From: Verrucomicrobiota bacterium
GTDB taxonomy: Bacteria; Verrucomicrobiota; Verrucomicrobiia; Limisphaerales; UBA1096
Reading direction: 5' to 3'
Assembly (NCBI GenBank): GCA_003972865.1
Contig: QOAX01000292.1
Span: forward strand, 1-42,837
Length of the DNA stretch: 42,837 bases
The position numbers and the translations under genes were made by a program. The notes under the pieces were generated by a model. It searched no databases. It was not told the origin of the DNA and worked only from the letters and a program-made list of their open reading frames with translations. Of this stretch, positions 918 to 41,586 are shown piece after piece (the stretch's first letter is position 1; each line of letters starts with the position of its first letter).

Positions 918-2345
918 TCACGCGATCAGGTTGCTGAGCACGTGGGCCTCCTCGACGCCGCTGAGGCGGAAGTCGAGCCCCTGGAACTTGAAGGTGAATT
1001 TTTCGTGATCGACTCCCAGCAAATGCAGCATCGTGGCGTGAAAATCGTGCACGGTGACGACATCCTCGACCGAGTGGTAGCCGAGGTCGTCGGTATTGCC
1101 GTGGCTGATGCCGCCCCTGATGCCGCCGCCGGCCAGCCAGAATGAAAATCCCTTCATGTGATGATCCCTCCCAGAGCCCTGCGCCATCGGGGTGCGGCCG
1201 AACTCGCCGCCCCAGATCACCAGCGTGTCGTCGAGCATGCCGCGATCCTTCAGGTCCCGGATCAACGCCGCCGAAGCCTTGTCAACATGCTTGGCGGTGG
1301 TGAGCACGCCGTTCTTCACGCCGCCGTGGTGATCCCAGCCCCGGTGATAAAGCTGGATGAATCGCGTGCCGCGCTCGGCCAGGCGCCGGGCCAAAAGGCA
1401 GTTGCTCGCGAATGAACCGTCGCCCGGCTTGGCGCCGTACAGGTCGAATACATGCTGCGGCTCGCTCGACGTGTCGATCAACTCCGGCACGCTGGCCTGC
1501 ATGCGGAACGCCATCTCGTACTGGCTGATGCGCGTGTCGATCTCCGGGTCGGCAACGGTCTTGTTCCGCAGTCGGTTGATCGAATTGACCGCGTCGATGA
1601 CCGCCCCCTGCCCTTTTGCATCCACCCCTTTCGGGTTGCTGATGTACAATACCGGATCACCGGTCGAGTGAAAGTGCACCCCCTGGTACCGGCTCGGCAA
1701 AAAGCCGCTGTGCCATTGCCGCGAGGCGATCGGCTGATCCTGCGCCCCGCCCACGGAGGTCAGCACCACGAAACCGGGCAGGTCGCTGCCCTCGCTGCCC
1801 AGCCCGTAAGTGATCCACGAACCCATGCTGGGCCGGCCGGCGACAAGGGCGCCGGTGTTCATGAACGTATGCGCCGGGTCGTGGTTGATCTGCTGCGTGA
1901 TCATCGAGCGGATGATGCAGATCTCATCCGCGATCCCGCCGATATGCGGCAGCGCGCTGGAGATCGACTGGCCGGACTGGCCGAATTCTTTAAACTCATG
2001 CTGGGGGCCAAGGCATTTCAATTCCTTCTTGCCCTGCAACTGGGCGATCGGCTGGCCGTCGGTGATCGACCTGGGCATCGGCTTGCCGTCCATCTCGGCG
2101 AGCTTCGGCTTGTAGTCGAGCGTCTCGAGGTGCGACGGCCCGCCGGCCATGCAGAGATGGATCACCCGCTTGGCCCTAGGCGCGAAGTGCAGCGGGTTGA
2201 TCACGCCAAAAGACAACCGTTTGGCCGGCTTGGCCAAGCCATGCGGGCCAAGCATCGAGGTCAACGCGAGCGAGCCAACGCCTAGCGAGACGTTATTCAA
2301 AAACGAGCGGCGATTCAGCCGGGTGAGGAATTGTTCCGTGTTCAT
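918..2345 (-). CDS. DUF1501 domain protein (Tat-exported, sulfatase/alkaline-phosphatase-like fold)
   Basis: 475 aa. Twin-arginine-type signal NRRSFLNNVSLGVGSLAL. Motifs CMAGGPSHLETLDYKP, GWDHH and WGGEFGRTP are typical of DUF1501. It starts 10 nt after the stop of its upstream partner 2356..5442. Confidence 0.9.
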   Translation of the reverse strand: MNTEQFLTRLNRRSFLNNVSLGVGSLALTSMLGPHGLAKPAKRLSFGVINPLHFAPRAKRVIHLCMAGGPSHLETLDYKPKLAEMDGKPMPRSITDGQPIAQLQGKKELKCLGPQHEFKEFGQSGQSISSALPHIGGIADEICIIRSMITQQINHDPAHTFMNTGALVAGRPSMGSWITYGLGSEGSDLPGFVVLTSVGGAQDQPIASRQWHSGFLPSRYQGVHFHSTGDPVLYISNPKGVDAKGQGAVIDAVNSINRLRNKTVADPEIDTRISQYEMAFRMQASVPELIDTSSEPQHVFDLYGAKPGDGSFASNCLLARRLAERGTRFIQLYHRGWDHHGGVKNGVLTTAKHVDKASAALIRDLKDRGMLDDTLVIWGGEFGRTPMAQGSGRDHHMKGFSFWLAGGGIRGGISHGNTDDLGYHSVEDVVTVHDFHATMLHLLGVDHEKFTFKFQGLDFRLSGVEEAHVLSNLIA

Positions 2346-2355
2346 GTTGCAGAAA

Positions 2356-5442
<3,087 letters not shown>

Positions 5443-5525
5443 ATTCACTGTCAAAACGTAGACGGCAAAATTACCCGCCCCATTCAACTGAGCCAACCCA
5501 AAACCGAGCGCTTGGACAAGCGGAG

Positions 5526-6377
5526 CTACTGCGACTTGTAGAGGCGCTCGAGGACGCTGTATTGGCGGTAGCTCAGGTTGCTGAACGGCACGCCGTCGAT
5601 CTCGATGCGGAACTTGGTCGGCAGCTCCTTGCCAGTCAGCGGCTTGAAGGCCTGTTTCTCGACGTACGGGACATGATAGATGGTGTAGAGCATACAGGCC
5701 AGGCGCGCGTACATCTTGTCGTTGGCGTTGATGACGACCCACGGGCTGATCTCCGATGCCGTGCGCTCGAGCATCTGCGTCTTGTACTTGGTAAACAACT
5801 CCCACTTGGCCCGGGCCTTCTCGTCGTTCTTCGTGTATTTCCAGTACTTGAGCGGGTGGATGATGCGCTCCTTGAACCGGAACAACTGTGTGTCACGACC
5901 GACCGACAGGTACAACTTGATGAGGATCAGCCCGTCGGCGATGAGTTGCTCCTCCCACGGCAGGACGCGCTTCATGAAGTAGCGGTACTGCCGCTCGGTG
6001 CAGTAGCCCATGGTCGGTTCGATGAGCGCGCGGTTATACCAGGAGCGGTCGAAGAAAACGATCTCACCCTTTTTGGGCATATGTTTCTCGTAGCGGCGAA
6101 ACCAGTTGCGCGACTCGTTCTTTGTCGGCACGCCGAGTTCCACCACGCACAGGTATTTCGGCATCAGATACTCGACGAAGCGCTTGATCGTGCCGCCCTT
6201 GCCCGCCGCATCGCGGCCCTCGACGGTGATGGCGATGCGTTTCTTGTTCTCAACCGCCCAGCGCTGGAGGTTTAGCAACTCCGCCTGCAACCGGCGCTTC
6301 TCCGCGTCGTACACGGCTCGGTCCAGATTCTTGTAAACCGAGTAAAACTTCTTTTTGATGTAATGCGCCCTGGCCAT
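5526..6377 (-). CDS. ppk2: polyphosphate kinase 2 family protein
   Basis: 283 aa. Walker-A-like GRDAAGKGGTIKRF plus FFDRSWYNR, characteristic of PPK2. Starts 5 nt after the stop of the upstream transporter gene. Confidence 0.9.
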   Translation of the reverse strand: MARAHYIKKKFYSVYKNLDRAVYDAEKRRLQAELLNLQRWAVENKKRIAITVEGRDAAGKGGTIKRFVEYLMPKYLCVVELGVPTKNESRNWFRRYEKHMPKKGEIVFFDRSWYNRALIEPTMGYCTERQYRYFMKRVLPWEEQLIADGLILIKLYLSVGRDTQLFRFKERIIHPLKYWKYTKNDEKARAKWELFTKYKTQMLERTASEISPWVVINANDKMYARLACMLYTIYHVPYVEKQAFKPLTGKELPTKFRIEIDGVPFSNLSYRQYSVLERLYKSQ

Positions 6378-6382
6378 GCCGG

Positions 6383-8200
6383 TTAATCAATTTTCAGCGA
6401 CCGATAGTATCCCTTCTCCCAAACCAAGCCGGCCAGCGACTTGGTCTCTGGTCTCGTGAAGAACGACACCGACACCCCCACCACAACACAGATGGTCAGG
6501 CCGTAACAGGCCCGCATGAACTTGTACTGCTTCACGCCGGCGAAAAGCCCGTCGCCGGCTTCGCCCATCGGCACGCCATGCGCGAATGGCGTAATGAGCT
6601 CCGGCACGAAAAACGACACGCCAATCGCGAGCAACCCGACCACCAGTGTCGCCAGGGCGGCTGGAGCGGTGAATCGTTTCCAGAACACGCTCAGCACAAA
6701 CGTCACCACCAGCGGCGGCGTCACCGCTGCGGTGAACGCACCGTGCGCGTCGTAGATCGAGTCGAAATTCATGAACACCGGCACCATGGCGATGCCCACC
6801 AGCGTCGCGCCGATCGCCGTCAACCGGGCCACCATGAGGGCCTGGCCGTCGGACATGTCCTTTTTGATATATTGCTTGTGCACATCGTTCACCCACACGG
6901 CGGAAATCGCGGTGATGAGCGTGTCCACCGTCGACATCAGCGCGGCGATCATTGCCGCCAAAATCAGCCCGAAGATGCCCGGCTGGCTGATGAGTTGTGT
7001 GGCGGCATAAAACGAATCATCCGCCGCCATGTTGCCGGGCAGATCGCCGTGATTGGCCAGGGCCTTGGCCAGCCAGCCCGCGCCGCCGACCACGCAGGCG
7101 GCCAGGGGCATCAGCACAACCAGGTGCGTGATCACCGCCTTTTTGCAGTCGGCATAGGATCGCGCCGCCATGTAGCGCATGATCGTCCCCTGATGCAGGA
7201 AGCCGAACATGATCGAGTTGGCCAGGCCGTCCTGCCAGAAAATGCCGACGCTCGGGAAGTCGGGGTCGCTGTTGAAATTGTGAAACACCTTCCGCGAATC
7301 ACCGGGCAGGTTGGCCCAAAACACATCGAAACCGCCGAGGTAGGCGAAGCCCAGCCCGAGGATCAGCCCGCCGGTGACGAGCAGCATCACGCCCTGGAAC
7401 AGGTCGGTCATGATCACGCTCGCCTGACCACCGCTGGACACGTATGACACGGACAACATTGCCACCAGCACCGCTCCCCAGAATATCTCCCACCCCAGCA
7501 GATGGTGCAGCACCTTGCCCATCGTGAACAGGTTCACGCCGACGTAGCCGACCATGTACACCAGCAGGCAAACCGTCGCCCAAAAGCGGACTTTCGAGTT
7601 GAAACGCCTGCCGAAGTACTCGGGAATCGACGTGACGCGGGAGAAATAAAGGATCGGCAGCCAGCAAAACAACAGCAGCGGAAAATAAATCCAGTCGTTG
7701 CTGTACGTCTGCGTGCTCGAGAGTCCGTACTGGTAACCTTTGCTCGAGTATTTCAGGAAGCTGTACGACCCGATGGTGGTGGCGATCATGCTGAACGCAA
7801 TCAACCACCAAGCGAACCGCCGGCCGCCGAAGAAAAAATCCTCGGTCGATTTCATCTTGCGACCGAAGAACATGCCAAGCGCCACGATGGCCACGAAGTA
7901 ACCGATCATGATCACGTAATCGATCGTCGCGCCTCGGTATCCCTTGTTCTCAACCGCAGTGATCGCCGCCTCACTGGCTTCCGTCGGCTTGTACATGGAC
8001 GGCTCCGCGGCGGGCATGCCGGGCGCCTTGTATTGGAGGAATGCCTGCAGAATGAAGTAAAACCCGAACACTCCCAGCGTGAGGCACAGGTTGCGCCGAC
8101 CCTTCCCGCTCAAGCCCAGGCTGCCCTGCCGCCAGGCCAGCACGAGGCCGAACACAAAGATCAGCCCGCCGCAGACGAAGTTGTAGATGAACGGATCCAT
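6383..8200 (-). CDS. sodium:solute symporter (SSS/SLC5) family transporter
   Basis: 605 aa and very hydrophobic with many predicted helices. SSS-like stretches FFFGGRRFAWWLIAFSMIATTIGS and GGQASVIMTDLFQG. About 90 aa of N-terminal extension carries two extra hydrophobic segments. Confidence 0.85.
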   Translation of the reverse strand: MDPFIYNFVCGGLIFVFGLVLAWRQGSLGLSGKGRRNLCLTLGVFGFYFILQAFLQYKAPGMPAAEPSMYKPTEASEAAITAVENKGYRGATIDYVIMIGYFVAIVALGMFFGRKMKSTEDFFFGGRRFAWWLIAFSMIATTIGSYSFLKYSSKGYQYGLSSTQTYSNDWIYFPLLLFCWLPILYFSRVTSIPEYFGRRFNSKVRFWATVCLLVYMVGYVGVNLFTMGKVLHHLLGWEIFWGAVLVAMLSVSYVSSGGQASVIMTDLFQGVMLLVTGGLILGLGFAYLGGFDVFWANLPGDSRKVFHNFNSDPDFPSVGIFWQDGLANSIMFGFLHQGTIMRYMAARSYADCKKAVITHLVVLMPLAACVVGGAGWLAKALANHGDLPGNMAADDSFYAATQLISQPGIFGLILAAMIAALMSTVDTLITAISAVWVNDVHKQYIKKDMSDGQALMVARLTAIGATLVGIAMVPVFMNFDSIYDAHGAFTAAVTPPLVVTFVLSVFWKRFTAPAALATLVVGLLAIGVSFFVPELITPFAHGVPMGEAGDGLFAGVKQYKFMRACYGLTICVVVGVSVSFFTRPETKSLAGLVWEKGYYRSLKID

Positions 8201-8230
8201 GCGCTTGGTTTGTGGGGTCGTTGCTCCCGG

Positions 8231-8539
8231 CTATTCCAAGTCCCCAAAATCATACACGACCACCCGGTCGCAGACTTGCTTGAACACCTTCTCGACGAAC
8301 TCGACGTGTTGCGGATGCGCCTGGTACTCATCCTGCACGATCTTGTTTTTGAACGTGATGTTCAACGCGACCTGATAACTTTGATCCACCACCGGCCGGT
8401 CACTCGGGGCGCATCGACCCACGTGCATCGAGATCACGCCGGGGATGTCCGGCAAATAGTGGTTCAAGCCGTCAACCAAACGCTTCTCGGCATCCTCCAC
8501 GGCCGGTTTGATCCAGAAAATAACTATGTGCGAAAACAT
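8231..8539 (-). CDS. Dabb (stress-responsive alpha/beta barrel) domain protein
   Basis: Start moved to ATG 8539 (MFSHIVIFWIKP...), about 102 aa. N-terminal HIVxF strand and HPQHVEFV motif fit Dabb domains. 30 nt upstream of the transporter start. Confidence 0.8.
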   Translation of the reverse strand: MFSHIVIFWIKPAVEDAEKRLVDGLNHYLPDIPGVISMHVGRCAPSDRPVVDQSYQVALNITFKNKIVQDEYQAHPQHVEFVEKVFKQVCDRVVVYDFGDLE

Positions 8540-8637
8540 CGCGGCCAGTGAATCCGATGCCCCAAGCGAAAGCAAATCCCATTTGCCGTGCAACGCCGGT
8601 TTTGACTTTTGCGGCTGATTACCGTAGTTCGTACCGC

Positions 8638-9942: not shown

Positions 9943-9966
9943 TTGAGGCGTTTTTGAGATAAAAAA

Positions 9967-32017: not shown

Positions 32018-32740
32018 CTATAAATTAAACTCGGGGCCAAGGTAGACCTCCCGCGCGGTGGGATCGTTCACGAGAAACTCCGCCTCGCCCTCGCACCGCA
32101 CGTCCCCCTTGTGAATGATATAGGCGCGGTCCACTAGCTTGAGCGTCTCGCGAACGTTGTGGTCGGTGATGAGGATGCCCATCCGCCGCTCCCTGAGCTT
32201 GCGCAAAATCTTCTGCACCTCGTAAACCGCGATCGGGTCGATCCCGCTGAACGGCTCGTCGAGCAACAGCATCCTCGGGCTGGTCACCAACGCCCGGGTG
32301 ATCTCGAGCCGCCGCTTCTCGCCGCCGCTCAGCGTGTACGCCTTGCTCCTGGCCAGGGCGGTCATGTCGAGTTCCTCAAGCAGCGACTTGAGCCGGGCCT
32401 TCTGCTCCAGCTTGTCGGACGTGCAGGTCTCGAGGATCGCCAAGATATTTTGCTCCACCGTCAACTTGCGAAATACCGACGGCTCCTGCGTCAGGTAGCC
32501 GATGCCCCGCCGCGCCCGCTGGTGCATGGGCAGATTGCCGATCGACTTGCCCTCGAACACCACCTCGCCCTCGTCCGGCTTCACCAGCCCAACGATCATG
32601 TTGAACGAAGTCGTCTTGCCCGCGCCGTTCGGACCCAGCAGGCCGACGATCTCCCCCGGCGACACGGAGAACGTCACGCCGTTGACCACGCGCCGTTTTT
32701 TGTACGCCTTGGCCAAGCCCTTCGCCTCGAGCAAACTCAT
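32018..32740 (-). CDS. lptB: LPS export ABC transporter ATP-binding protein
   Basis: Start moved to ATG 32740 (MSLLEAKGLAKAYKKRRVVNGVTFSV). Walker A GPNGAGKTT, signature LSGGEKRRLEI, Walker B LLLDEPF. ATGA overlap with the upstream LptA-like gene. Confidence 0.9.
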   Translation of the reverse strand: MSLLEAKGLAKAYKKRRVVNGVTFSVSPGEIVGLLGPNGAGKTTSFNMIVGLVKPDEGEVVFEGKSIGNLPMHQRARRGIGYLTQEPSVFRKLTVEQNILAILETCTSDKLEQKARLKSLLEELDMTALARSKAYTLSGGEKRRLEITRALVTSPRMLLLDEPFSGIDPIAVYEVQKILRKLRERRMGILITDHNVRETLKLVDRAYIIHKGDVRCEGEAEFLVNDPTAREVYLGPEFNL

Positions 32741-34728
32741 GGCATCCCTTTTTTCATTTCGTCCTGTTTTTTTCGCCCGCGCATTTTTGCGATCGTTTTC
32801 GGGTTCAGCGTCATCTTCCAGCGGCCGGTGGCCTTGAGACGCTTGGTTTGCGGGTTGTACACAACCTCCCTGCCGCGCAACACGCCCTCGGGCGTCTTCA
32901 GCACCGGGTCGCCTGTCAGGCGCAACAACCCCGTACCAAGGTTGTAAATCGCCGCTTGGCCAAGCGCAACCACCTCCGAACCCTCCCGCCACGTGCGGAT
33001 CTCCACGCTTGGCCTGCCGGTCAACCGCATCGTCTGATCAAGCCTGGTATAAACCAACCGGTCGCCCACGTACCGCATTGCGTTTTCGCCGGTTGTCGAG
33101 ACGTCCACGTCGCCAGCCGCATCCAGCGAAACTAAGCCAGCCTCGCTCGGGTCGATCTCCGTCGCCACGCGCCGCGCCTGAACCCGCAACCCTTCGTCGC
33201 CGGTTAACACCACATTGCCGGTGAAGATCGCCGAGTCGAGCCCCGTGCCGCCAACCGCCTGCCGATACTCGAACGAGTCGCAAACGACCAAAAGAGGCTC
33301 ACCGCTTGGTTCTGTTTTTGCCGCCTCGCCGCTGTCGGCAGGCAACAGAAACCGTCCGTCGCCCTTGGGCCGGGGCAACTGCATCTTCACCCCCCCGCTC
33401 GCCCGGAAAACGCCATCGACCGGTGACAATTCGACCGAGCGCGCCTGGCCGCTTTGCGTGCCCAGTTTCCACTTTGGCTCACCCTGGAACTGAATTCTCT
33501 TTTGCACCATGTCGTAAGTGGCCGTCTGCGCCGTGAGTTGATCCTCCCCTTGCTCAAGCTTGACGCCGACTGCGGCATTAACCGATTCCACAACTCCACC
33601 GGTGCCCTTGGCCAAGTGCACGTTCAAAAAACTGCATCGCAGCCGGCCTTCTCCGCGAGCCAGGCGAACCGCGCCGATGTACCGCGCAAAGCCGGTTTTC
33701 CCCGGGGTCGCAGACTGGAACAAAAAAATATTGGAGCGGATTTCGAGCGGCCGGCCATCGCCGCCGCTCGCCGTCTCGTCTCTCAACGCATTAAAATCAA
33801 GGAATCCCCCCTCGCCCTCGGAGTCTGCCGGGAGTTTCATGTAAACATCCCCCTCGGCGTTCACGGATTGTGTCTCACGATGAACCATCAGCAGGTTGGC
33901 GCGGCCGGATCGCTCGCCCATCGTCCAGCTTGGGTTTCCCTTGAGCACAATCAAACCAGCAGCCAGGTCATAGTCGGCCTGCTCACTGGTGGTTTTGATT
34001 TGTTCGGATTGCAGCACCACACTGCCGATTGCCCGGATCGTTTGCACCCCCCAGTCGTCCTCTCCCAGGCCAGCCGCGATGGAGTCGCTTCCCAGCGTGC
34101 CTTCGGCATCGATCACCGAAACGGAACCGCGAAAAACCGCCCGGCCAGGCTCGAGTTCAAATTGGCGCGAGGTGATTCGAAGCAGCTCCGTCTCGGCGCT
34201 GGGTGTGTCCGTCTTTTTCTGCGCTTGGCCAAGCGGCAGGCGGCTGAAGTTTTTGTCCAGCTTGGCCTCGACGCTGCCAAACACGCTCAGCGTCGGCCCG
34301 GCCAGGTTCCCGGAAAAACCGACGCCCTTGAGCTGCATCTGGCCATCGCCCGTGGAGAGCGATAGTTCGCCGGGCGAGCGGATCGTTTTTTTGTCCTGAT
34401 CGTAGAGGCACTCGCTGGCGGTGAAGACGAGATTGGTTTTCCCATCGGCAGTGACGGTGACCAGACGCGGGTCGCTCAACGCCAACGTGCCGTCCGCCTG
34501 AAAAACCGCCTCGCTGCCGGTGAGGATGGAGATTCGGAGACTGTCAGCCGATTTTTCCGCAATGCGGAACCGCCCGGTACTCGCCGCCGCCTGGCCAAGC
34601 GCCTGGCTTGGCTTGGCGGCCAAAAGACACGCCGCAAAAACCGGGATCATCCATTGCGCCTTCGTCAACACAACTGCGGCGAGTGTGAAATCGGCGCGCG
34701 GGCTTGCAAAGGTTTTACTGCGCTCCAT
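32737..34728 (-). CDS. large periplasmic OstA/LptA-like repeat protein
   Basis: 663 aa and beta-rich, with recurring OstA-type motifs (ADYDLAAGLIVLKGNPSW, ATYDMVQKRIQFQGEPKW, AAIYNLGTGLLRLTGDPVL). Sits immediately upstream of and coupled to lptB. A signal-peptide-like start is at ATG 34650 (MIPVFAACLLAAKPSQALG). Confidence 0.7.
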   Translation of the reverse strand: MERSKTFASPRADFTLAAVVLTKAQWMIPVFAACLLAAKPSQALGQAAASTGRFRIAEKSADSLRISILTGSEAVFQADGTLALSDPRLVTVTADGKTNLVFTASECLYDQDKKTIRSPGELSLSTGDGQMQLKGVGFSGNLAGPTLSVFGSVEAKLDKNFSRLPLGQAQKKTDTPSAETELLRITSRQFELEPGRAVFRGSVSVIDAEGTLGSDSIAAGLGEDDWGVQTIRAIGSVVLQSEQIKTTSEQADYDLAAGLIVLKGNPSWTMGERSGRANLLMVHRETQSVNAEGDVYMKLPADSEGEGGFLDFNALRDETASGGDGRPLEIRSNIFLFQSATPGKTGFARYIGAVRLARGEGRLRCSFLNVHLAKGTGGVVESVNAAVGVKLEQGEDQLTAQTATYDMVQKRIQFQGEPKWKLGTQSGQARSVELSPVDGVFRASGGVKMQLPRPKGDGRFLLPADSGEAAKTEPSGEPLLVVCDSFEYRQAVGGTGLDSAIFTGNVVLTGDEGLRVQARRVATEIDPSEAGLVSLDAAGDVDVSTTGENAMRYVGDRLVYTRLDQTMRLTGRPSVEIRTWREGSEVVALGQAAIYNLGTGLLRLTGDPVLKTPEGVLRGREVVYNPQTKRLKATGRWKMTLNPKTIAKMRGRKKQDEMKKGMP

Positions 34729-34737
34729 CGAAAAAAC

Positions 34738-35625
34738 TCAGGCCTTGGGCGGCAACTGAAACTCGTCCGCATGGTACGAGCTGCGCACCATCGGGCCGCT
34801 GGCCACGTGCAGGAAGCCCATCTCCCGCGCCTTGGCCCCGTACTCGTCGAACTGCCCCGGTGTCAAGTACTCGGCCACCGGCAAATGGCAGAGGCTCGGC
34901 TGCAGGTATTGGCCCAGCGTGAGAATGTCACACTTGGCCAGGCGCAGGTCAGCCATCGCCTCGAGTAGCTCCGCCTCTGTCTCGCCGAGGCCAAGCATCA
35001 AGCCGGACTTGGTGTGAATCACATCGGCGCCCCGCTCCTTGGCCTTGCGCAGCACTGTGAGCGAGCGCTCGTACTGGGCCCGAGAACGAACGCTCGGCGT
35101 GAGCCGCCGCACCGTCTCGAGGTTGTGATTGAAAATCTCCGGCCTGGCATCGAGCACCATTTGCAGCGAATCGGCCTTGTCGAGGAAGTCCGGCACGAGC
35201 ACCTCGATGACGATGCCGCGATTCCGGCGGCGAACCGCCTCGATGGTCGCCCGAAAATGGGCAGCCCCACCGTCGGTGAGATCATCCCGGGCGACGGCGG
35301 TGATCACGACGTGCCCGAGCTTCATCCGGAATGTCGCCTCGGCGACCCGCTCCGGTTCGTCGCCCTGAAGCGGCAGCGGCTTGGCGGTGTTCACCGCGCA
35401 AAAACCGCAGGCGCGCGTGCAGCGGTCGCCGGCGATCATGAACGTCGCCGTGCCCTTGCTCCAGCACTCCCAGTGGTTCGGGCACTTGGCGCTCTCGCAA
35501 ACCGTGTGCAGGTTCAACTCGCCAAGCAAACTGCGCGTGCGCGTGAAAGCGCTGCTGCTTGGCAGCTTCAGCCGGAGCCATTCGGGAATGCGTTTGCGTT
35601 TTTGAATCGTTACCGTGTCGGGCAT
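34738..35625 (-). CDS. lipA: lipoyl synthase
   Basis: 295 aa. CESAKCPNHWEC (auxiliary cluster) and CTRACGFCAV (radical-SAM CxxxCxxC) plus the C-terminal RSSY are canonical LipA. Confidence 0.95.
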   Translation of the reverse strand: MPDTVTIQKRKRIPEWLRLKLPSSSAFTRTRSLLGELNLHTVCESAKCPNHWECWSKGTATFMIAGDRCTRACGFCAVNTAKPLPLQGDEPERVAEATFRMKLGHVVITAVARDDLTDGGAAHFRATIEAVRRRNRGIVIEVLVPDFLDKADSLQMVLDARPEIFNHNLETVRRLTPSVRSRAQYERSLTVLRKAKERGADVIHTKSGLMLGLGETEAELLEAMADLRLAKCDILTLGQYLQPSLCHLPVAEYLTPGQFDEYGAKAREMGFLHVASGPMVRSSYHADEFQLPPKA

Positions 35626-35639
35626 GCCTTACTGAATCG

Positions 35640-35888
35640 TCAACCAAGTTCCTCCCAAAACCGGGCAAGCTCGGGAGCCCCGAAGTCGGCCAGCATCTCT
35701 CCGTCGACCTCGATCACAGGGGCGCTGCTCTGGCCGCTCAGCCGCACCATCTCGTCCCAAGCGGCGCGGTCGGACGTCACGTCGAGCGCGTTGTATTTGA
35801 TCTTGTTGCGGTCAAGCCACTCCATTGCCTCAGCGCACCAGCCGCAGAACGGCTTGATGAAAAGTCGGACAGTCGTGGATTGGTACAT
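35640..35888 (-). CDS. glutaredoxin/NrdH-like thioredoxin-fold protein
   Basis: Preferred start ATG 35888 (MYQSTTVRLFIKPFCGWCAEAMEWL). CGWC active site, then APVIEVDGEML, typical of the small Grx fold. 14 nt upstream of lipA. Confidence 0.75.
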   Translation of the reverse strand: MYQSTTVRLFIKPFCGWCAEAMEWLDRNKIKYNALDVTSDRAAWDEMVRLSGQSSAPVIEVDGEMLADFGAPELARFWEELG

Positions 35889-35983
35889 CACCTTGGCCTT
35901 GGCCAAGCGCACTTTGCGGCCAAAGCCAAGCCAGCGCAATATCATGCGTCACTCACCTCTGTGATGAGGGTGGCATCCATCGG

Positions 35984-37534
35984 TTACAGGGTTGGGCCGA
36001 GCATCCACGGGGCGAACTCCTCGTCGCCCATGCCGGCAAGTTCGCTCTTGGTTTTTTCGCCGCCGGCCACGGCGAGAATCTTGTCGTAAACCCGCCGGCC
36101 GACCTCCCCGACCGTCTCGGTGCCGTCGAGAATTGTGCCGGCGTTTATATCCATGTCCTCCTCCATCCAGTTGTACATCGGGGAGTTGGTGGCGACCTTG
36201 ATGCACGGGGAAGGTTTGCAGCCGTACACGCTACCGCGGCCGGTGGTGAACACGCCGACGTTGCAACCGCCGCTGACCAGACCGGTCATGCTCACCGGGT
36301 CGTTGCCGGGCGTGTCCATGAAGCACAAGCCCTTGGCCTCGATGGGCTCGGCGTAGTCGTAGACGGCAGCCAACGGCGCCTGGCCCGCCTTGGCAATCGC
36401 GCCGAGGCTTTTCTCGAAAATCGTGGTCAGGCCGCCGTCCTTGTTTCCCGGCGAGGGGTTGTTGTCTATCGTCGAGCCGAACAACGCCGTGTGCTCCTCC
36501 CACCAGCGGATTTTCGAAACGAGTTTCTCGCCGACTTCGCGTGTCACAGCACGGCGGGTGAGCAGATGTTCCGCGCCGTAAATCTCGGTGGTCTCGCCAA
36601 AGACGGAAGCAGCACCCTGCCGTACGAGTTCGTCGGAGGCGACGCCCAGCGCTGGGTTGGCCGAGATGCCGCTGTTGGCATCGGAGCCGCCGCAGTTCAT
36701 CGCCATGGCGAGTTTGGAAACCGGTTGTGTCGTCCGCTGCAGTGCGTTGACATCAGGCAGCATTTTCTCAACTGCCTTGACCGCCGACTCGACGGTTTTT
36801 CGGACACCTCCGGTTTGTTGAATGGTCAGGAACGTGGGAGCCTGTTCGCCATCCTGCAACTGGTCGAGGTGGTGCTTCTCGACCAAGCCGGGAACCTGAT
36901 TGACCTCGCAACCCAGCCCGACCAACACATAACCGCCGATGTTTGGATGGCGCGCCATTCCCGCAATGACACGCTGCAACACCTCGTGGCCGTGGTTCGG
37001 GTCGTAGCTGCACCCGCCCTTGTGCGTAAAGGCAACCACACCATCGACATTGGCAAAATCACTTTGGAAGTCACTGGATCGAAAGTGGTCTGCCACATAT
37101 CGAGCGACTGATGCGGAGCAGTTCACGCTCGAAATAACGGCGATATAATTGCGCGTTCCGGCTTTGCCCCCAGGCCGCGCGAAGCCAGAAAAAGTATCCT
37201 TATCTCTCTCCAGCGGAGACGGTTTGACTATTTCTTCGCAAAAACCGTAATCCCTGCCAACCGCTCTCAGTTCAACATTGTGGGTGTGTACCCAGTCCCC
37301 GGGCTCGATGGCGGTCTTCGCAAAGCCGATGATTTGGCCATACTTCACCAACTGCTCGCCTGCGTTGATCGACAGCAAGGCAACCTTGTGCCCTCCAGGA
37401 ATGGTTTGTCTCAACTTAACGCGACTATCACCCACAACCACCGAAGCACCTTTTTTCAATGTACGACGCGCAGTGGCGACATTGTCGTGCTGATGAAGAA
37501 TGATGAAGTCTGAAGCAATGTCGGTCACGGACAC
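35984..37534 (-). CDS. UxaA-family sugar-acid dehydratase (altronate/galactarate dehydratase-like) with N-terminal SAF domain
   Basis: 516 aa. SAF-like N-terminus (HQHDNVATARRTLKKGA...GHKVAL). GTRNYIAVISSVNCSA, GCEVNQ and CGGSDANSG are typical of UxaA/GarD enzymes. Confidence 0.9.
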   Translation of the reverse strand: MSVTDIASDFIILHQHDNVATARRTLKKGASVVVGDSRVKLRQTIPGGHKVALLSINAGEQLVKYGQIIGFAKTAIEPGDWVHTHNVELRAVGRDYGFCEEIVKPSPLERDKDTFSGFARPGGKAGTRNYIAVISSVNCSASVARYVADHFRSSDFQSDFANVDGVVAFTHKGGCSYDPNHGHEVLQRVIAGMARHPNIGGYVLVGLGCEVNQVPGLVEKHHLDQLQDGEQAPTFLTIQQTGGVRKTVESAVKAVEKMLPDVNALQRTTQPVSKLAMAMNCGGSDANSGISANPALGVASDELVRQGAASVFGETTEIYGAEHLLTRRAVTREVGEKLVSKIRWWEEHTALFGSTIDNNPSPGNKDGGLTTIFEKSLGAIAKAGQAPLAAVYDYAEPIEAKGLCFMDTPGNDPVSMTGLVSGGCNVGVFTTGRGSVYGCKPSPCIKVATNSPMYNWMEEDMDINAGTILDGTETVGEVGRRVYDKILAVAGGEKTKSELAGMGDEEFAPWMLGPTL

Positions 37535-37554
37535 GCCGAACAGTTAGCACAAAA

Positions 37555-37578
37555 AAAGCCCGCCGTTAAGCGGGCTTT
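37555..37578 (-). terminator. intrinsic terminator of gene 37604..38263
   Basis: 9-bp stem aaagcccgc / gcgggcttt with a 6-nt loop. The minus-sense RNA continues into a U-rich tract (plus-strand aaaaaaa 37551..37557, partly shared with the stem). Lies 26 nt downstream of the stop at 37604. Confidence 0.8.
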
Positions 37579-37603
37579 CCAAAATCCATATTAAAGGAAT
37601 CGA

Positions 37604-38263
37604 TCAGGGAGCGTTGTAACGCGCAGGATCGAGACCCGCAGTCGCGGAAACAGGCGTCGGGGCAGTACTTGGGAATACATCCGTTCCAACCACAGACCCA
37701 TCAGCACCTAGGGCCGAAATCGGAGAATTCACCGTAGTGATGACGCCCTTCGAATCAGAACCGCCCCCGGCGAGCACCGCCTGGTTTACTGTCCTGAACA
37801 GGGACGGCACTGCCGCCACAACTGAATTGTAAACCATCTGATGCTTCTTAACATTGGTGACCTTCAGGATCGCGATCGTGATCTTATCGATCTTCGCAGG
37901 AGCAGCCTTCGCAGCAGCCCTGGCAATATCTCTCGTGTACTGCGGGGTCAGCTTGACTGCCTCCGCTGCGATGTCTGCCGCCGCATCGGGCACCAGACTG
38001 CAGATGAAACTTACCACTGAAACGCAAACGGCTGGCTTCCTGGCAACAGCAACCCGCAGAACCTCCATCGCGGTCTCGGCCTTATCGACCTTCTTCGCCT
38101 TCGCCACCAACATGTTGGCAATGTACGGCATCTCAGCACCGGGTGCTTTTTCAAAGGCCGCCCTGATTACCTTTTTGTCCACAGCAGCTGAAGTGGATGC
38201 TATTGATCCCAAGAAAGTAACCGATATTGCTAAGCCGACAATTAACCGTGTGTTCTTTTTCAT
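37604..38263 (-). CDS. hypothetical secreted alanine-rich protein
   Basis: 219 aa. Signal peptide MKKNTRLIVGLAISVTFLGSIASTSA. Ala/Lys-rich helical body and Gly/Ser/Thr/Pro-rich tail. No family recognised. Own terminator, lower GC. Confidence 0.7.
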   Translation of the reverse strand: MKKNTRLIVGLAISVTFLGSIASTSAAVDKKVIRAAFEKAPGAEMPYIANMLVAKAKKVDKAETAMEVLRVAVARKPAVCVSVVSFICSLVPDAAADIAAEAVKLTPQYTRDIARAAAKAAPAKIDKITIAILKVTNVKKHQMVYNSVVAAVPSLFRTVNQAVLAGGGSDSKGVITTVNSPISALGADGSVVGTDVFPSTAPTPVSATAGLDPARYNAP

Positions 38264-38443
38264 ATTTGTATTGCTAGGGTCTTTACCGTAACCGGTTCGG
38301 GGAGTCTCGGCAGTGATTCGGAGAGTGTCAACCTGAAAAATAGATCTTTTTTCATTTTTATTTCCAACGAAAAAACAGCCGATTTGCCCTTGTAATACAT
38401 TAAAACTGCCCCATATTGGCGGTCTAGTAACCTAACAGAAACC

Positions 38444-40711
38444 ATGCAAACTTCTTTTTTGTCACGAAAAACTATCATTCTTGGAATCTATGTTGCAGCC
38501 CAAGTCGCACAGGCACAATCACTTCCTGAAGTCCATAATGTGGATCTTCAGCCGCTCAAGGCGCAGATTCAGCGACTCATTCAGGCCAAGGATTATCTTG
38601 GCGAACCGTTTTCGCCGAAAGTTAAGAAACAACTCAGCCAAGCGCTTGGCCAAGCGGACGCCAACGAAGCCGTCGCCGCTGTCCAGCAAATCCTTGATGC
38701 CCAATGCCTGATCGGCATCAACATCAACCCGGAGTCGCGGGTCAAGGTGAAAGCCGGCCCGGCCAAGCGTGAGTTGGTCGAGCAGGGCTGGCGCAGTTTT
38801 CTGGTCAAGGTAAACAACCTGGCCGGTGTCACCGCCGAACTCCGTGCCAGCAGCCCAAACTCCCGCCCCCACGCCGGCGCGCCGCAGAGCCAGATCGTCG
38901 ATCGATGGCTTGGCTTGTCGATGCATAATTCCCAACCGCTCACCAAGACGCTAAGCGGCTTGGCCTTGGAGTATCGCATCGTGCAGCTTTACAGCCGCGA
39001 CGCCGGTAAGCGCGACGCCAAGCTCAGCTTCGACGTTGGCCAGGGGACGCAGGATCTGGGCTTCCGCAACGAGGTCAGCCTGCTATTCGACTGCAAGCCG
39101 GCCCGCAAAGTCACGCTCAAGGTGCTCGACGAAAACGGCAAGCCGACCACCGCCGGTTTTGAATTTCGCGACAAACTTGGACACGTCTATCCGTCGCAGG
39201 CCAAGCGGCTTGCGCCGGACTTTCATTTTCACCCGCAAATCTACCGCGCCAACGGCGAACACGTGAAACTGCCGAGCGGCTCCTACACCGTTCGCAATTA
39301 TCGAGGCCCCGAGTCGATCCCGCAGACCCGCACCATCACCGTCGGCAATGCGGACATCACCGAGTCGTTTCAGGTAAAGCGCTGGGTCGATCCGTCGCTG
39401 ATGGGCTGGTGGTCGGGCGATCACCATATCCACGCCGCAGGTTGTGCCCACTACAAAAACCCCACCGAGGGCGTCCACGCGGCGGACATGATGCGGCACT
39501 GCCTCGGCGAAGACCTCAAAGTCGGCGCCAACCTCACTTGGGGGCCGTGGTTCGATTATCAAAAACAGTTCTTCACCGGCAAAATCGACGCCGTCTCCCA
39601 GTTTCCCTATTTACTCCGCTACGACGTTGAGGTTTCCGGCTTTGGTTCTCATCAATCCGGCCATTTGTGCCTGTTACGGTTAAATGATCAGATGTATCCC
39701 GGCGGCGAATCCAAGCACCACTGGCCCAAGCTCTGCCTCAACACCCTCCGCTGGGCCAAGCGCCAGGGCGCCCTCGTCGGCCCGGCGCATTCCGGTTGGG
39801 GACTCAACCAAACCGGCTCCACCCTGCCGACCTACGAGGTGCCGCCGTTCAGCGGCATCGGTGCCAACGAATATATCGCCGACGTCACCCACATGGTTCC
39901 CGGACCGGACGGCAAACCGGTGCCGGCCGTTGACTTCCTCTCGATGGTCGATACGCCGTCGGTTTGGGAACTCAACATTTGGTATCACACGCTCAACTGC
40001 GGCTTCCGCACGCGCATCAGCGGCGAGACCGACTTCCCCTGCATCTACGGCGAACGCGTCGGCCTTGGCCGCTCGTACGTCAAGCTCGACGGCAAACTAA
40101 CCTACAACGACTGGTGCGAAGGCATCCGTGCTGGGCGCAACTACGTCGGCGACGGACGCAGCCACTTGATCGACTTCCAAGTCGATAACGTGCAGATGGG
40201 AGTGAACGGCAGCGAGTTGCGCTTGGCCAAGGCAGACACCGTGCTCGTCACGGCCAAGGTCGCCGCCCGGCTTAACGACGAACCGATCCCGGGCTTGGCC
40301 AAGCGCAACTACGCCCAGAAACCGTACTGGCACATTGAGCGCGCCCGGCTCGAGGGCACCCGAAAAGTCCCGGTCGAGGTGATCGTCAATGGCTATCCGA
40401 TTGCGAAAAAAGAAATCATCGCCGACGGCGATTTGCGGGACATCGCCTTTGAGGTTCCGATCGAGTTCAGTAGCTGGGTGGCGCTGCGCATCCTTCCATC
40501 GTCACACACCAACCCGGTTTTCGTGCTCGTCGATGGCAAGCCGATCCGCTCCTCCAAACGCAGTGCCGAATGGTGCCTTGCCGGAGTGAAAAAATGTCGC
40601 TCGCAAAAACGCCGCTTCATGGGCGAAGACGAGATCACCGACTTCAACGCAGCCTACGATCACGCCGAGAAAGCCTACCACCGCATCATCGGCGAAAGCG
40701 TCACCGACTAG
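38444..40711 (+). CDS. secreted putative metal-dependent hydrolase (HxH motif, PHP/CehA-McbA-like) with large N- and C-terminal beta-rich regions
   Basis: 755 aa. Signal peptide MQTSFLSRKTIILGIYVAAQVAQA. GWWSGDHHIHAAGCAHY resembles the metal-binding start of PHP/CehA-type hydrolases. The coding call is confident; the function is tentative. Confidence 0.8.
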   Translation: MQTSFLSRKTIILGIYVAAQVAQAQSLPEVHNVDLQPLKAQIQRLIQAKDYLGEPFSPKVKKQLSQALGQADANEAVAAVQQILDAQCLIGININPESRVKVKAGPAKRELVEQGWRSFLVKVNNLAGVTAELRASSPNSRPHAGAPQSQIVDRWLGLSMHNSQPLTKTLSGLALEYRIVQLYSRDAGKRDAKLSFDVGQGTQDLGFRNEVSLLFDCKPARKVTLKVLDENGKPTTAGFEFRDKLGHVYPSQAKRLAPDFHFHPQIYRANGEHVKLPSGSYTVRNYRGPESIPQTRTITVGNADITESFQVKRWVDPSLMGWWSGDHHIHAAGCAHYKNPTEGVHAADMMRHCLGEDLKVGANLTWGPWFDYQKQFFTGKIDAVSQFPYLLRYDVEVSGFGSHQSGHLCLLRLNDQMYPGGESKHHWPKLCLNTLRWAKRQGALVGPAHSGWGLNQTGSTLPTYEVPPFSGIGANEYIADVTHMVPGPDGKPVPAVDFLSMVDTPSVWELNIWYHTLNCGFRTRISGETDFPCIYGERVGLGRSYVKLDGKLTYNDWCEGIRAGRNYVGDGRSHLIDFQVDNVQMGVNGSELRLAKADTVLVTAKVAARLNDEPIPGLAKRNYAQKPYWHIERARLEGTRKVPVEVIVNGYPIAKKEIIADGDLRDIAFEVPIEFSSWVALRILPSSHTNPVFVLVDGKPIRSSKRSAEWCLAGVKKCRSQKRRFMGEDEITDFNAAYDHAEKAYHRIIGESVTD
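38637..38657. repeat. second copy of the 21-mer GCCAAGCGCTTGGCCAAGCGG
   Basis: Identical 21-mer to 26628..26648, here inside the hydrolase-like CDS where it encodes S-Q-A-L-G-Q-A-D. Confidence 0.9.
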
Positions 40712-41586
40712 CCGAGGAACAGGTTCGTCGCGGGACCGCTGACACCCGGCTTGCAGCGGAACACTCCGCCGGCGAGTGGCTGATCCACCCTGCCCGCCTC
40801 GTCGAGGTCGCGGCTGGAGGTGGTGATGTACAGTTCGTCCCAGTTTTCTCCGCCGAAACAGCAGGACGTCACGCACTCGACCGGCACTTCCACCTTGGCC
40901 AAGAGCGCCCCGCCCGGCGCGAACCGCGCCACGCCCCAGCCCTGCCACAGCGCCACCCAAAGCATCCCCTCGTTGTCGATGCACATGCCATCCGGATAGC
41001 CCATCCCCTCCGGCAACTCGAACGCTGTCCGGCGATCCGACACCGTGCCGCTGGCCATGTCGCAGTCGAACACATCCATACGGCGCGTCGGCGAGTCGAT
41101 GTAGTAATATGTCTTTTGATCCGACGTCCAGGCCATGCCGTTTGAGATGCTGACTTGGTCGAACAACTTGTCGGTGGAGAGATTGCGGTTGAGCCGGTAG
41201 AGGCTGCCGACGTTCGGTGCCTCGTCCATCCCCATCGTGCCGGCCCAAAGCCGGCCCTCGGGATCGACCTTGCCGTCGTTGAAACGGTTGTTCGGCAAAT
41301 CCTGCTCCGGGTCGATGATCGGCGACAGGTCGCCGCTGGCCAAGTCGAGTCGCACGAAGCCGATGCTCGTGCCGAGGATCAAGTCGCCGCGCTCCGCCGG
41401 GACGGCCAAGCCGGGTTTTTCGCCGATGTCCCAAGTTTGGTTTTCGCCGCTGGTCGGGTTAAAACAGCAGACGCGGGCACTCTCGATGTCCACCCAGACC
41501 AAGTCCTGCGTCTCCGCCCGCCATACGGGCCCCTCGCCAAGGATGGCCTTGGTGTCCAGCACACACTCTGCCGTCAACGTTAGCAC
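40708..41586 (-). CDS. SMP-30/gluconolactonase/LRE family protein
   Basis: 292 aa. ILGEGPVWRAETQDLVWVDI, NRFNDGKVDPEGRLWAGTM, SNGMAWT and PDGMCIDNEGMLWVA are the beta-propeller lactonase motifs. Confidence 0.9.
   Translation of the reverse strand: MLTLTAECVLDTKAILGEGPVWRAETQDLVWVDIESARVCCFNPTSGENQTWDIGEKPGLAVPAERGDLILGTSIGFVRLDLASGDLSPIIDPEQDLPNNRFNDGKVDPEGRLWAGTMGMDEAPNVGSLYRLNRNLSTDKLFDQVSISNGMAWTSDQKTYYYIDSPTRRMDVFDCDMASGTVSDRRTAFELPEGMGYPDGMCIDNEGMLWVALWQGWGVARFAPGGALLAKVEVPVECVTSCCFGGENWDELYITTSSRDLDEAGRVDQPLAGGVFRCKPGVSGPATNLFLG

Follow-up and report, generated by a model that had tools for sequence, protein, structure and literature searches.

A lineage-specific iterated palindrome of Verrucomicrobiota that resembles cyanobacterial HIP1

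Background

Why should one palindromic word recur about once per kilobase in bacterial DNA whose genes are unrelated to one another? The question is raised by contig QOAX01000292.1 (assembly GCA_003972865.1, Verrucomicrobiota), whose 42,837 bp, with a G+C content of 60.65%, are called the window below. A first-pass annotation made from the letters alone had picked out the octamer TTGGCCAA and likened it to HIP1 (GCGATCGC), the highly iterated palindrome of cyanobacteria, of which 'alternate HIPs' are known in a few cyanobacteria (PMC4390886, PMC5861425). We show that the motif is a highly iterated palindrome specific to one lineage, that it is a DNA-level feature occurring about once per kilobase, and that its copies come from substitutions in place and not from insertion of an element. 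Judged by its sequence features, it is a HIP1-like iterated palindrome in a new phylum.

Results

An octamer far in excess of chance

An exact search finds TTGGCCAA 35 times in the window. Independent bases at the window's composition would give ~0.54 copies, and 100 dinucleotide-preserving shuffles gave 1.15±1.04 with a maximum of 4. The commonest 8-mers of the window are all pieces of the motif, and many copies extend symmetrically: the 12-bp palindrome GCTTGGCCAAGC is present 12 times, the 14-bp palindrome CGCTTGGCCAAGCG six times (16587, 19293, 26637, 32956, 34225 and 38646) and the 16-mer GCGCTTGGCCAAGCGC once, at 16587. A maximal-order Markov model gives 70 observed against 58.9 expected. 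This ratio is only ~1.2 because the 7-mers on which the model conditions belong themselves to the same longer enriched word; being the wrong null for a nested motif, the Markov expectation was set aside as a test.

Where the copies lie and how they are read

We called 36 genes in the window from open reading frames (ORFs), codon-position G+C and Pfam/NCBIfam matches. Against these calls, 27 of the 35 sites are read TTG-GCC-AAx, giving Leu-Ala-Lys (LAK, 23 sites) or Leu-Ala-Asn (LAN, four); six are read xTT-GGC-CAA (Leu-Gly-Gln, LGQ) and one, at 5361, TGG-CCA (Trp-Pro), while the site at 26637 is intergenic, between hisI and trpE. An apparent second reading of site 32956 vanishes once lptB takes its called length of 240 aa. 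The octamer thus uses 20 different genes, three frames and both gene orientations, besides the one intergenic copy. About one intergenic copy is expected, so there is no intergenic or terminator preference. Spacing is not distinguishable from random (coefficient of variation 0.85 against 0.97 for random placement, P=0.2).

The first-pass annotation had reported 35 copies with fewer than one expected by chance, the same 12-, 14- and 16-bp extensions in the same numbers and, for the 14-bp form, at the same sites, and the same tally of frames (27, 6 and 1, with 34 of 35 copies in ORFs). All of this was reproduced, as were 34 of its 35 start positions; the remaining one, 13851, should be 13841.

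The sites are listed here with the gene and its strand, the frame and the encoded peptide. L085, L087, L088 and L089 are loci of relatives, introduced below.

Copies of TTGGCCAA in the window:
2230..2237; DUF1501 gene, minus strand; frame 0; GLAKPA
2918..2925; PSCyt1-PSCyt2-PSD1 gene, minus strand; frame 0; LLAKSI; LAK conserved across the lineage
3410..3417; PSCyt gene, minus strand; frame 0; RLAKPR; exact in L085 and L087, TTGGCCAG in L088
3566..3573; PSCyt gene, minus strand; frame 0; PLAKRS
4196..4203; PSCyt gene, minus strand; frame 0; ALAKWE; exact in L085 and L087, CTGGCCAG in L088
5361..5368; PSCyt gene, minus strand; frame 2; SAWPSG; N-terminal, residue 19 of 1022; sole Trp-Pro reading
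9019..9026; sulfatase gene, plus strand; frame 0; LLAKRG; exact in L088
9556..9563; sulfatase gene, plus strand; frame 0; ELANSI
11225..11232; SIS_2 gene, minus strand; frame 0; DLAKEA
11760..11767; ROK-family gene, minus strand; frame 0; RLAKLG
11985..11992; ROK gene, minus strand; frame 0; HLAKAM; exact in L088 and L087
12027..12034; ROK gene, minus strand; frame 0; PLAKRL; exact in L088 and L087
13841..13848; RlmD-like rRNA methyltransferase gene, plus strand; frame 0; RLAKCK
14774..14781; RlmD-like gene, plus strand; frame 0; LLAKFE
16587..16594; TMEM260-like/TPR gene, plus strand; frame 0; RLAKRD; full 16-mer GCGCTTGGCCAAGCGC; exact in L089
17239..17246; TMEM260-like/TPR gene, plus strand; frame 1; QLGQNF
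19293..19300; GT4 glycosyltransferase gene, plus strand; frame 1; ALGQAG; 14-mer CGCTTGGCCAAGCG
21453..21460; PSCyt1/PSD/DUF1592 gene, minus strand; frame 0; RLAKHY
21567..21574; DUF1592 gene, minus strand; frame 0; ALAKDM
21618..21625; DUF1592 gene, minus strand; frame 0; RLANMK
22785..22792; DUF1592 gene, minus strand; frame 0; ALANEL
23295..23302; DUF1592 gene, minus strand; frame 0; RLAKGG
26637..26644; hisI-trpE spacer, sole intergenic copy; 14-mer within the composite GGCCAAGCGCTTGGCCAAGCGG; exact in L089
29052..29059; ubiE-like gene, minus strand; frame 0; RLAKRG; outgroup homologues have NST, LAL, VEK or VDE
30310..30317; moeA, plus strand; frame 1; VLGQVG
30612..30619; moeA, plus strand; frame 0; RLAKGD
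32709..32716; lptB-like ABC ATPase gene, minus strand; frame 0; GLAKAY
32956..32963; 3' end of LptA/OstA-like gene, minus strand; frame 1; ALGQAA; 14-mer
33608..33615; LptA/OstA-like gene, minus strand; frame 0; HLAKGT
34225..34232; LptA/OstA-like gene, minus strand; frame 1; PLGQAQ; 14-mer
35899..35906; glutaredoxin gene, minus strand; frame 0; RLAKAK
38646..38653; CehA/McbA-like metallohydrolase gene, plus strand; frame 1; ALGQAD; 14-mer in the composite GGCCAAGCGCTTGGCCAAGCGG, as at 26637
40223..40230; CehA/McbA-like gene, plus strand; frame 0; RLAKAD
40295..40302; CehA/McbA-like gene, plus strand; frame 0; GLAKRN
40895..40902; SMP-30/gluconolactonase gene, minus strand; frame 0; LLAKVE

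Isolated half-sites:
1..42837; 48 heptamers CGCTTGG or CCAAGCG outside full octamers; coding sequences, both orientations, all three frames

A DNA-level effect

One could imagine that selection acts on protein or translation, favouring a Leu-Ala-Lys (RLAKR) peptide or a codon pair, and that the DNA word is a side effect. One frame does hold 27 of the 35 copies, LAK is the top tripeptide of the window proteins (37 against 7.3 expected), and LAK positions are kept among members of the lineage. The codon shuffles argue against this explanation. When synonymous codons are permuted within each gene, which keeps the proteins and the per-gene codon usage, 5.88±2.15 copies of TTGGCCAA result (maximum 14) instead of 35, and shuffling the order of codons leaves 1.76±1.37. 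For the 10-mer CTTGGCCAAG the figures are 28 observed against 1.59 (synonymous) and 0.25 (codon-order), and for GCTTGGCCAAGC 12 against 0.55 and 0.03. The enrichment therefore survives a codon-preserving shuffle, a check that the first-pass annotation had proposed. Since the two codon nulls differ, the proteins too must have been altered. As for spelling, 23 of the 37 LAK are encoded as TTGGCCAAG and eight more as CTGGCCAAG.

The same annotation had asked whether the tripeptides are conserved in homologues that lack the DNA motif. For the most part they are not. The DUF1592 protein of the window, which has five sites, was compared with 150 representatives that are mutually <50% identical. At 23295 (RLAKGG) the family has E-G-S and none of 111 homologues has the window tripeptide; at 21567 (ALAKDM) the family state is L-A-x, and the window tripeptide is found in 0 of 49; at 21618 (RLANMK) it is L-D-N (2 of 48) and at 21453 (RLAKHY) L-A-E or L-A-A (7 of 49). 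Only at 22785 (ALANEL) is LAN the family consensus (58 of 113), which makes it a pre-existing site. The window tripeptide thus differs from that of the family at four of the five sites. LAK occurs 3.44 times per 1000 aa in the window protein and 0.19 times in the 150 representatives, and in a smaller sample of outgroup homologues the window tripeptides are common to none of seven. Since the tripeptides are mostly not those of the family, it follows that Leu-Ala-x positions were exploited where present and other residues overwritten, and that the cause lies in the DNA.

Several further observations are at odds with selection on the peptide or codon pair. Eight copies are intergenic or use another frame, half-sites turn up in every frame and in either orientation, the flanks of the motif are palindromic, and a phage contig, described below, has the same pattern. 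With shuffles, frames, half-sites, flanks, homologues and phage all opposed to it, protein- or translation-level selection is refuted and we can give it hardly any credence. The enrichment is a DNA-level effect.

Shape of the motif and its half-sites

In the symmetrised profile of the 35 sites there is C at -1 in 89%, G at -2 in 54%, C at -3 in 60% and G or C at -4 in 94%; information is close to zero beyond 5 bp from the octamer (-5/+5). The consensus S-CGC-TTGGCCAA-GCG-S is a palindrome of 14-16 bp. In coding orientation the extension is seen on both flanks and is stronger where the flank is a third codon position. G+C-rich relatives have the same flanks, which are weaker in a relative with 52% G+C. 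The commonest one-off variant is CTGGCCAA/TTGGCCAG, with 24 copies in the window.

Each half of the palindrome is enriched on its own in DNA of the lineage relative to that of outgroups. With all full octamers masked, the top-ranking words are GGCCAAGCG (27-fold), GGCCAAGC (16-fold), CCAAGCGC (15-fold) and GCCAAGCG (14-fold), and a perfect 7-nt half (CGCTTGG or CCAAGCG) beside an unrelated other half is 9.2-fold commoner. The enrichment is graded. Exact 14-mers number 19 in the lineage and 0 in the outgroups, those with one mismatch 41 and 0, and the excess is 36-fold at two mismatches, 5.6-fold at three, 2.2-fold at four and ~1 at five or more. The head-to-head palindrome is the preferred unit of half-sites, with 97 copies against only five of the tail-to-tail arrangement CCAAGCGCTTGG. 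Half-sites that are enriched on their own, together with graded enrichment, suggest a dimeric sequence reader; a dimeric DNA-binding protein would account for a palindrome of this kind no less well than would a methyltransferase with a classical site of 6-8 bp.

Some half-sites are combined in other ways. The 22-nt composite GGCCAAGCGCTTGGCCAAGCGG occurs twice in unrelated contexts, at 26628-26649 (hisI-trpE spacer) and 38637-38658 (CehA-like gene); in it one half-site overlaps a full 14-mer, which creates the tail-to-tail palindrome CCAAGCGCTTGG. Tandem half-sites, for instance CCAAGCCAAG and TTGGCCAAGGCCAAGC, are also present (positions 23 and 22785).

Many identical short copies might also be expected of a mobile miniature element, be it a miniature inverted-repeat transposable element (MITE), a repetitive extragenic palindrome (REP) or a bacterial interspersed mosaic element (BIME), or of an assembly or adapter artefact. 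Such elements are longer, with defined ends or a stem-loop, and are mostly intergenic. Here there is no similarity past ~5 bp on either side of the octamer, the copies lie in frame within conserved genes, and sites are orthologous among independent assemblies (ENA, JGI, NCBI). Because no longer sequence is common to the copies, MITE and REP are excluded, as the first-pass annotation had also judged; of all the explanations considered, an element or artefact is the one we find least credible. An oriented word, asymmetric and with a strand bias that follows replication, such as Chi or the FtsK-orienting polar sequences (KOPS), is excluded as well, the full word being self-complementary and the isolated half-sites of the window lying in both orientations (20 and 28).

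A lineage with the motif and neighbours without it

By TrpE, the nearest genomes (65-76% identity) belong to the Verrucomicrobiota, being assigned to Pedosphaera sp., Verrucomicrobia subdivision 3 or Limisphaerales, and NCBI lists one protein of the lineage under Pedosphaera sp. The host is a Pedosphaera-like member of subdivision 3 and no planctomycete. No representative of the window species or of its motif-bearing relatives was seen among the GTDB matches returned by the TrpE search. In ~160 loci with TrpE no more than 80% identical, from GTDB genomes and JGI metagenomes, TTGGCCAA is found 0-2 times per ~21 kb, all of it background. Around trpE only trpE, hisI and hisF are in common with the GTDB relatives, and there are no sites in these genes. 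The gene content of the window is planctomycete-like (PSCyt1/2/3, PSD1-5, DUF1501, DUF1552) despite its verrucomicrobial host.

Closer relatives were found by protein search and contig look-ups. The same species in other metagenomes (loci L001-L004) is motif-rich, and in a further locus of it (L324) the 8.8 kb past the right end of the window show a density of 8.0 per 10 kb and contain only housekeeping genes. Among the other relatives, L089 (TrpE 96%, nucleotide identity 84%) has 26 copies in 21.5 kb (12.1 per 10 kb), L085 (87% nucleotide identity, 65% G+C) 16 in 14.4 kb (11.1), L088 (89%) 20 in 22.6 kb (8.8) and L087 (78%, 52% G+C) nine in 21.5 kb (4.2). In the parts of L085 and L088 without homology to the window, density is 8.0 and 8.8 per 10 kb, respectively. 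The enrichment is therefore not confined to the window, a possibility that had been raised at the outset. In all, the lineage sample comprises ~150 kb from at least five species-level genomes, ~26 kb of it not homologous to the window.

TTGGCCAA is the top palindromic octamer in every locus of the lineage. Pooled, it occurs 86 times per 100 kb in the lineage against 3.3 in outgroups (26-fold); the ratio is 156-fold for CTTGGCCAAG, 3.4-fold for TGGCCA and 1.3-fold for GGCC. As far as can be seen, the motif is genome-wide and common to several species or genera, with a sharp boundary to sister lineages, where it is at background.

Other palindromic hexamers differ too. In the window, L085, L088 and L089, TGTACA is 4.9-fold, CTCGAG 3.0-fold and GTGCAC 2.5-fold commoner than in the outgroup, and GGGCCC, CCGCGG, GGATCC and GAGCTC stand at ~0.4-0.5-fold. 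These differences may reflect the restriction-modification history of the lineage.

The SMP-30/gluconolactonase protein of the window has exact matches in 48 indexed blocks of the assembly collection (L324-L327), on contigs of up to 110 kb from several projects, and the L085 contig of a relative has ~510x coverage. Hence this uncultured lineage is widespread and locally abundant, and its abundance in existing samples makes methylome and population analyses feasible.

Conservation and turnover of sites

Sites are conserved exactly more often than the background for octamers in three of the four genome pairs compared, the numbers being small and the pairs non-independent: 13 of 17 sites are kept in L089 (background 0.31), five of six in L085 (0.40) and six of 12 in L087 (0.155). 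The codon test used for HIP1 (Xu et al. 2018, PMC5861425) compares codon identity inside and outside the motif where the amino acid is conserved. Identity is 0.78 inside against 0.54 outside for TTG, 0.92 against 0.75 for GCC and 0.94 against 0.81 for AAG, and all six constituent codons are more often identical inside. Individual sites are thus kept more often than neutral decay allows.

Sites also come and go. At 24 sites found in a relative and not in the window, the window sequence is mostly a one-off variant, chiefly CTGGCCAA/TTGGCCAG and also TTGGTCAA, TTGGCTAA and TTGACCAA; five of the 12 sites present only in L089 are a matter of CCTGGCCAAG versus CTTGGCCAAG. Sites arise and vanish by point substitution while density stays similar. 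Copies form mainly where the protein already has Leu-Ala-x or tolerates Leu-Ala-Lys, and losses are most often T/C changes in the octamer's outermost base. No sites lie in the genes under strongest constraint (trpE, hisF, hisI, lipA, hprK, ppk2, rpsB, tsf), and sites are concentrated in PSCyt/PSD, ROK, LptA-like and CehA-like genes. Genes with low third-position G+C have 0.26 sites per kb against 0.88, but this rests on one site in 3.8 kb.

The predominance of T/C changes brings to mind a functionless mutational sink, left as a by-product when Dcm-like methylation is not followed by repair: deamination of the two inner 5-methylcytosines turns CCTGGCCAGG, a pair of abutting CCWGG sites, into exactly CTTGGCCAAG. 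The dominant polymorphism lies at precisely those positions (CCTGGCCAAG and CTTGGCCAAG, the five of 12 L089-only sites just mentioned), CTGGCCAA/TTGGCCAG with its 24 copies is the commonest one-off, and relative to the outgroup the lineage has 0.72-fold CCWGG and 3.2-fold CTTGG/CCAAG. However, CCTGGCCAGG is present at only 0.2 per 100 kb in outgroups; with no precursor pool to convert, it cannot be the source. The other deamination products, CTAGG/CCTAG, are not raised (1.2-fold). The change TTG/CTG is a synonymous transition, hence the commonest variant under any model, and the GCG flanks, the half-site enrichment and the above-background conservation would be left unexplained. This by-product is already disfavoured, and we consider it very improbable.

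Phage DNA

Scans of IMG/VR returned 120 loci with the 14-mer and 149 with the 14-mer and 16-mer together. Among these 149 viral loci one is clearly motif-rich (L237) and one marginal (L181). L237 (IMGVR_UViG_3300032087_002358, 1-13670) is a phage fragment of 13.7 kb with 54% G+C that encodes TerL (3800-5416), a DnaB helicase (8213-9646), a DnaD-like loader, an exonuclease and RusA. It has eight copies of TTGGCCAA where 0.24±0.49 are expected, this being its top palindromic octamer, and the copies use the frames of the host, LAK/LAN and LGQ. Presumably it infects the motif-bearing lineage. There are two readings of this: resident DNA is converted whatever its origin, or the tag is of benefit to phages.

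L181, a slice of IMGVR_UViG_3300048852_000059 (744,869 bp, filed as viral), has four copies of TTGGCCAA in 10 kb and 59% G+C. This slice may come from the chromosome of a motif-bearing host that contains a provirus.

Discussion

What might read the palindrome

Several suggestions can be made regarding the driver. By analogy with cyanobacterial HIP1, the reader would most likely be part of a DNA-modification-linked system that marks self DNA. A sequence-specific protein would read the site as a symmetric dimer, each subunit recognizing one CGCTTGG half-site, with the halves joined through the central GGCC, and would impose drive or selection proportional to the quality of the match. A candidate would be an orphan methyltransferase acting on the TGGCCA/GGCC core, whose mark might be used in repair, recombination or transformation. 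We rank this modification-linked self-DNA tag first, an uptake signal second and an architectural array third, and taking the statement as a whole we would believe it about as readily as doubt it. It is placed first because HIP1, the closest analogue, has orphan methyltransferases and methylation-dependent enhancement of natural transformation has been reported for it (bioRxiv 10.1101/2024.09.10.611283, 10.64898/2026.06.24.733823).

A number of observations weigh against the modification-linked tag. In the fourth genome pair, that with L088, six of 14 sites are kept against a background of 0.47, which is no excess, and conservation by itself does not separate selection from a continuing mutational or conversion drive. 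Type II methyltransferases recognize 4-8 bp in an all-or-none manner; a graded consensus of 14-16 bp with enriched half-sites is atypical of them. GGCC is not enriched in other contexts (1.3-fold overall, AGGCCT 0.67-fold, GGGCCC 0.34-fold), hence an enzyme like HaeIII cannot alone be the reader. The deamination-type variants TTGGTCAA/TTGACCAA and TTGGCTAA/TTAGCCAA are no rarer than other one-offs in a small sample. Very-short-patch repair, which the first-pass annotation had offered as an option, is therefore without support, on evidence that is not decisive. These last three points, on recognition, GGCC and variants, also tell against a classical drive by methyltransferase plus Vsr. No DNA methyltransferase, Vsr-type nuclease, competence gene or candidate reader was found in the ~150 kb of lineage DNA; as this is ~3% of a genome, a missing driver gene says little either way. 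Pfam and NCBIfam scans of all 36 window genes found only RNA and small-molecule methyltransferases (RlmD-like, UbiE). Viral contigs were also scanned with a seed, the M.HaeIII sequence verified against PDB 3UBT/1DCT; the six loci found include none that is motif-rich, so that close phage-borne relatives of M.HaeIII are not associated with the motif.

Another potential role is that of a DNA uptake signal. If a surface or periplasmic receptor for natural transformation prefers DNA with the motif, repeated uptake and recombination of conspecific DNA would enrich it by molecular drive, as with the DNA uptake sequence (DUS) of Neisseria and the uptake signal sequence (USS) of Pasteurellaceae. An uptake hypothesis for HIP1 has been set out (bioRxiv 10.64898/2026.06.24.733823) and overlaps with the modification-linked reading. 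Much in our data would suit it: the density of ~1 per kb, enrichment graded as by a weight matrix, with the 9-mer-like half-site GGCCAAGCG enriched alone, turnover of sites at constant density, and a motif common to related species and absent in neighbours, like the dialects of DUS. The strong peptide imprint would suit it too, with conserved enzymes avoided (trpE, hisF, hisI, lipA, hprK, rpsB and tsf have no sites) and many sites in PSCyt/PSD, ROK and LptA-like genes. However, to our knowledge DUS and USS are not palindromes, and here the head-to-head palindrome (97 copies) far outnumbers other arrangements of half-sites. Spacing is no more even than random, there is no preference for intergenic DNA or terminators, and a phage at the fold excess of its host is not readily explained short of recombination with host DNA. 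We know of no documented competence in this verrucomicrobial group, and no competence genes were seen in the ~150 kb. An uptake signal is thus possible and, in our opinion, doubtful.

The palindrome could also be a binding-site array for a chromosome-organising protein, nucleoid-associated or involved in segregation or condensation, which would read it as a dimer and be selected for overall density of sites. A 14-16 bp palindrome with independently enriched half-sites and affinity-like grading is what such a protein might leave behind; sites are kept above background and yet are individually replaceable, and density is similar in species of differing G+C. Against this, palindromic architectural sites such as parS, matS and those of Noc and SlmA number roughly tens per genome and are regionally confined, not spread at one per kb. 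Information peaks at the contiguous centre TTGGCCAA, unlike the spacer-separated half-sites of most helix-turn-helix dimers. The heavy cost to proteins, as in the change from E-G-S to L-A-K at 23295, would call for a strong benefit, and the presence of the motif in phage would need a separate explanation. We regard such an array as improbable.

A more radical reading can be put forward tentatively, and we hold it to be rather unlikely: a genome-wide self tag would have evolved independently and would be read by a dedicated dimeric CGCTTGG-binding protein, not by a conventional restriction-type methyltransferase. If true, such a dimeric-reader system would have the strength to turn hundreds of positions in proteins into (R)LAK(R), whether it serves in uptake, in repair or in discrimination for defence, and the phages of the lineage would be forced or allowed to carry the same tag.

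Comparison with known systems

The abundance of palindromic words has been linked to methylation before. Bhagwat and McClelland reportedly found in 1992 that Dcm/Vsr very-short-patch repair shapes CCWGG-related words in E. coli. The effect there is small, well below two-fold. In it a repair bias alters how often a palindromic methyltransferase site occurs, which provides a template for modification-linked drive; unlike that case, the excess here is 26- to 156-fold, and the predicted depletion of T:G-derived one-offs is not observed. The recognition sequences of MscI/BalI (TGGCCA) and HaeIII (GGCC) both lie inside the core of the motif. Restriction-modification palindromes are usually avoided in the host genome, whereas this motif is hyper-abundant, and GGCC outside TTGGCCAA is not enriched.

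For HIP1, the density, the extensions, the variants at end positions and the link to methyltransferases have been described (PMC4390886). Like HIP1, the motif is a G+C-rich palindromic octamer and the most over-represented word. Its copies are scattered over unrelated genes and all frames and have no element flanking them; the motif extends palindromically to 10-14 bp and has one-off variants clustered at the first or last base. Sites and codons are conserved more inside the motif than outside, and the motif is lineage-wide, with neighbouring lineages that lack it. Its density, ~820-1200 per Mb, falls within the 300-2700 per Mb of HIP1, and the fold excess is tens to hundreds. The parallel with HIP1 drawn in the first-pass annotation is in this way borne out on density, fold excess, palindromic extensions, first- and last-base variants and codon conservation. 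We therefore find in it the features by which this class of sequence is known: a top octamer, dispersed by substitution, beyond what codon usage or protein accounts for, conserved and lineage-wide.

The differences are also clear. The phylum is another one and the word, which lacks a GATC or CGATCG core, is unrelated; this rules out DmtA and DmtC, the methyltransferases of cyanobacteria, as readers. The independent enrichment of half-sites is a further difference, and we have met no report of it for HIP1. HIP1 has been linked to methyltransferases, whereas the likeness described here is one of sequence features alone. The function of HIP1 has itself been an open question for ~30 years (PMC5861425, bioRxiv 10.64898/2026.06.24.733823).

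With DUS and USS (PMC1939737) the motif has in common a density of ~1 per kb, both orientations, graded enrichment of near-matches, a peptide imprint, tolerant positions in less-conserved proteins and lineage-specific variants. DUS and USS are asymmetric words, often paired in terminators, whereas this one is truly palindromic and does not favour intergenic DNA. Their even spacing and inverted terminator pairs are lacking here. Uptake bias and competence machinery are established for DUS and USS, whereas our motif is known only as a pattern in DNA.

The searchable literature holds no report of a highly iterated palindrome outside cyanobacteria, nor of this word as one. Neither TTGGCCAA nor TGGCCA is connected there with an iterated palindrome, with Verrucomicrobia or with the methylome of such an organism. 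The 5-methylcytosine motif TGGCCA described in PMC8919816 belongs to metagenome-assembled genomes of marine origin, with no link to this group. If our classification is true, this would be the first highly iterated palindrome outside cyanobacteria.

Implications

A second, unrelated word in another phylum shows that such iteration is not peculiar to cyanobacteria and their GATC/CGATCG methylation, and it provides an independent case for comparison. The sharp boundary between presence and absence offers a way to the machinery, since genes common to motif-rich genomes and absent from close motif-free neighbours are candidates for it; the half-site structure and graded enrichment constrain the kind of protein that might be the reader. 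There are also practical consequences. As a compositional marker the word is strong and can serve in binning and in matching phages with the host lineage; the LAK/RLAKR bias calls for caution when homology or selection is analysed in these proteins.

Other observations in the window

A gene for a xylose-isomerase-like TIM-barrel protein (AP_endonuc_2; 10011-11078, minus strand) has a third-position G+C of 0.51 against ~0.8 and no copy of the motif. It gives no nucleotide alignment with the closest relative, L088, where a gene of the same family has the opposite orientation, and it may be a recent replacement or import. Other genes with low third-position G+C (27924-28514, 37604-38263 and 23468-23827) are also without the motif; their total length is too small for a test.

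A tRNA-Ala gene (24500-24575, minus strand) with anticodon GGC, which reads the motif codon GCC, overlaps the 3' tail of an ankyrin-repeat ORF (23769-24611, plus strand). Since the Pfam ankyrin matches of this ORF stop by about residue 214, its tail is probably not coding. Finally, the plus strand of the window contains 13,734 C and 12,247 G, consistent with the location of 26 of the 36 genes on the minus strand.

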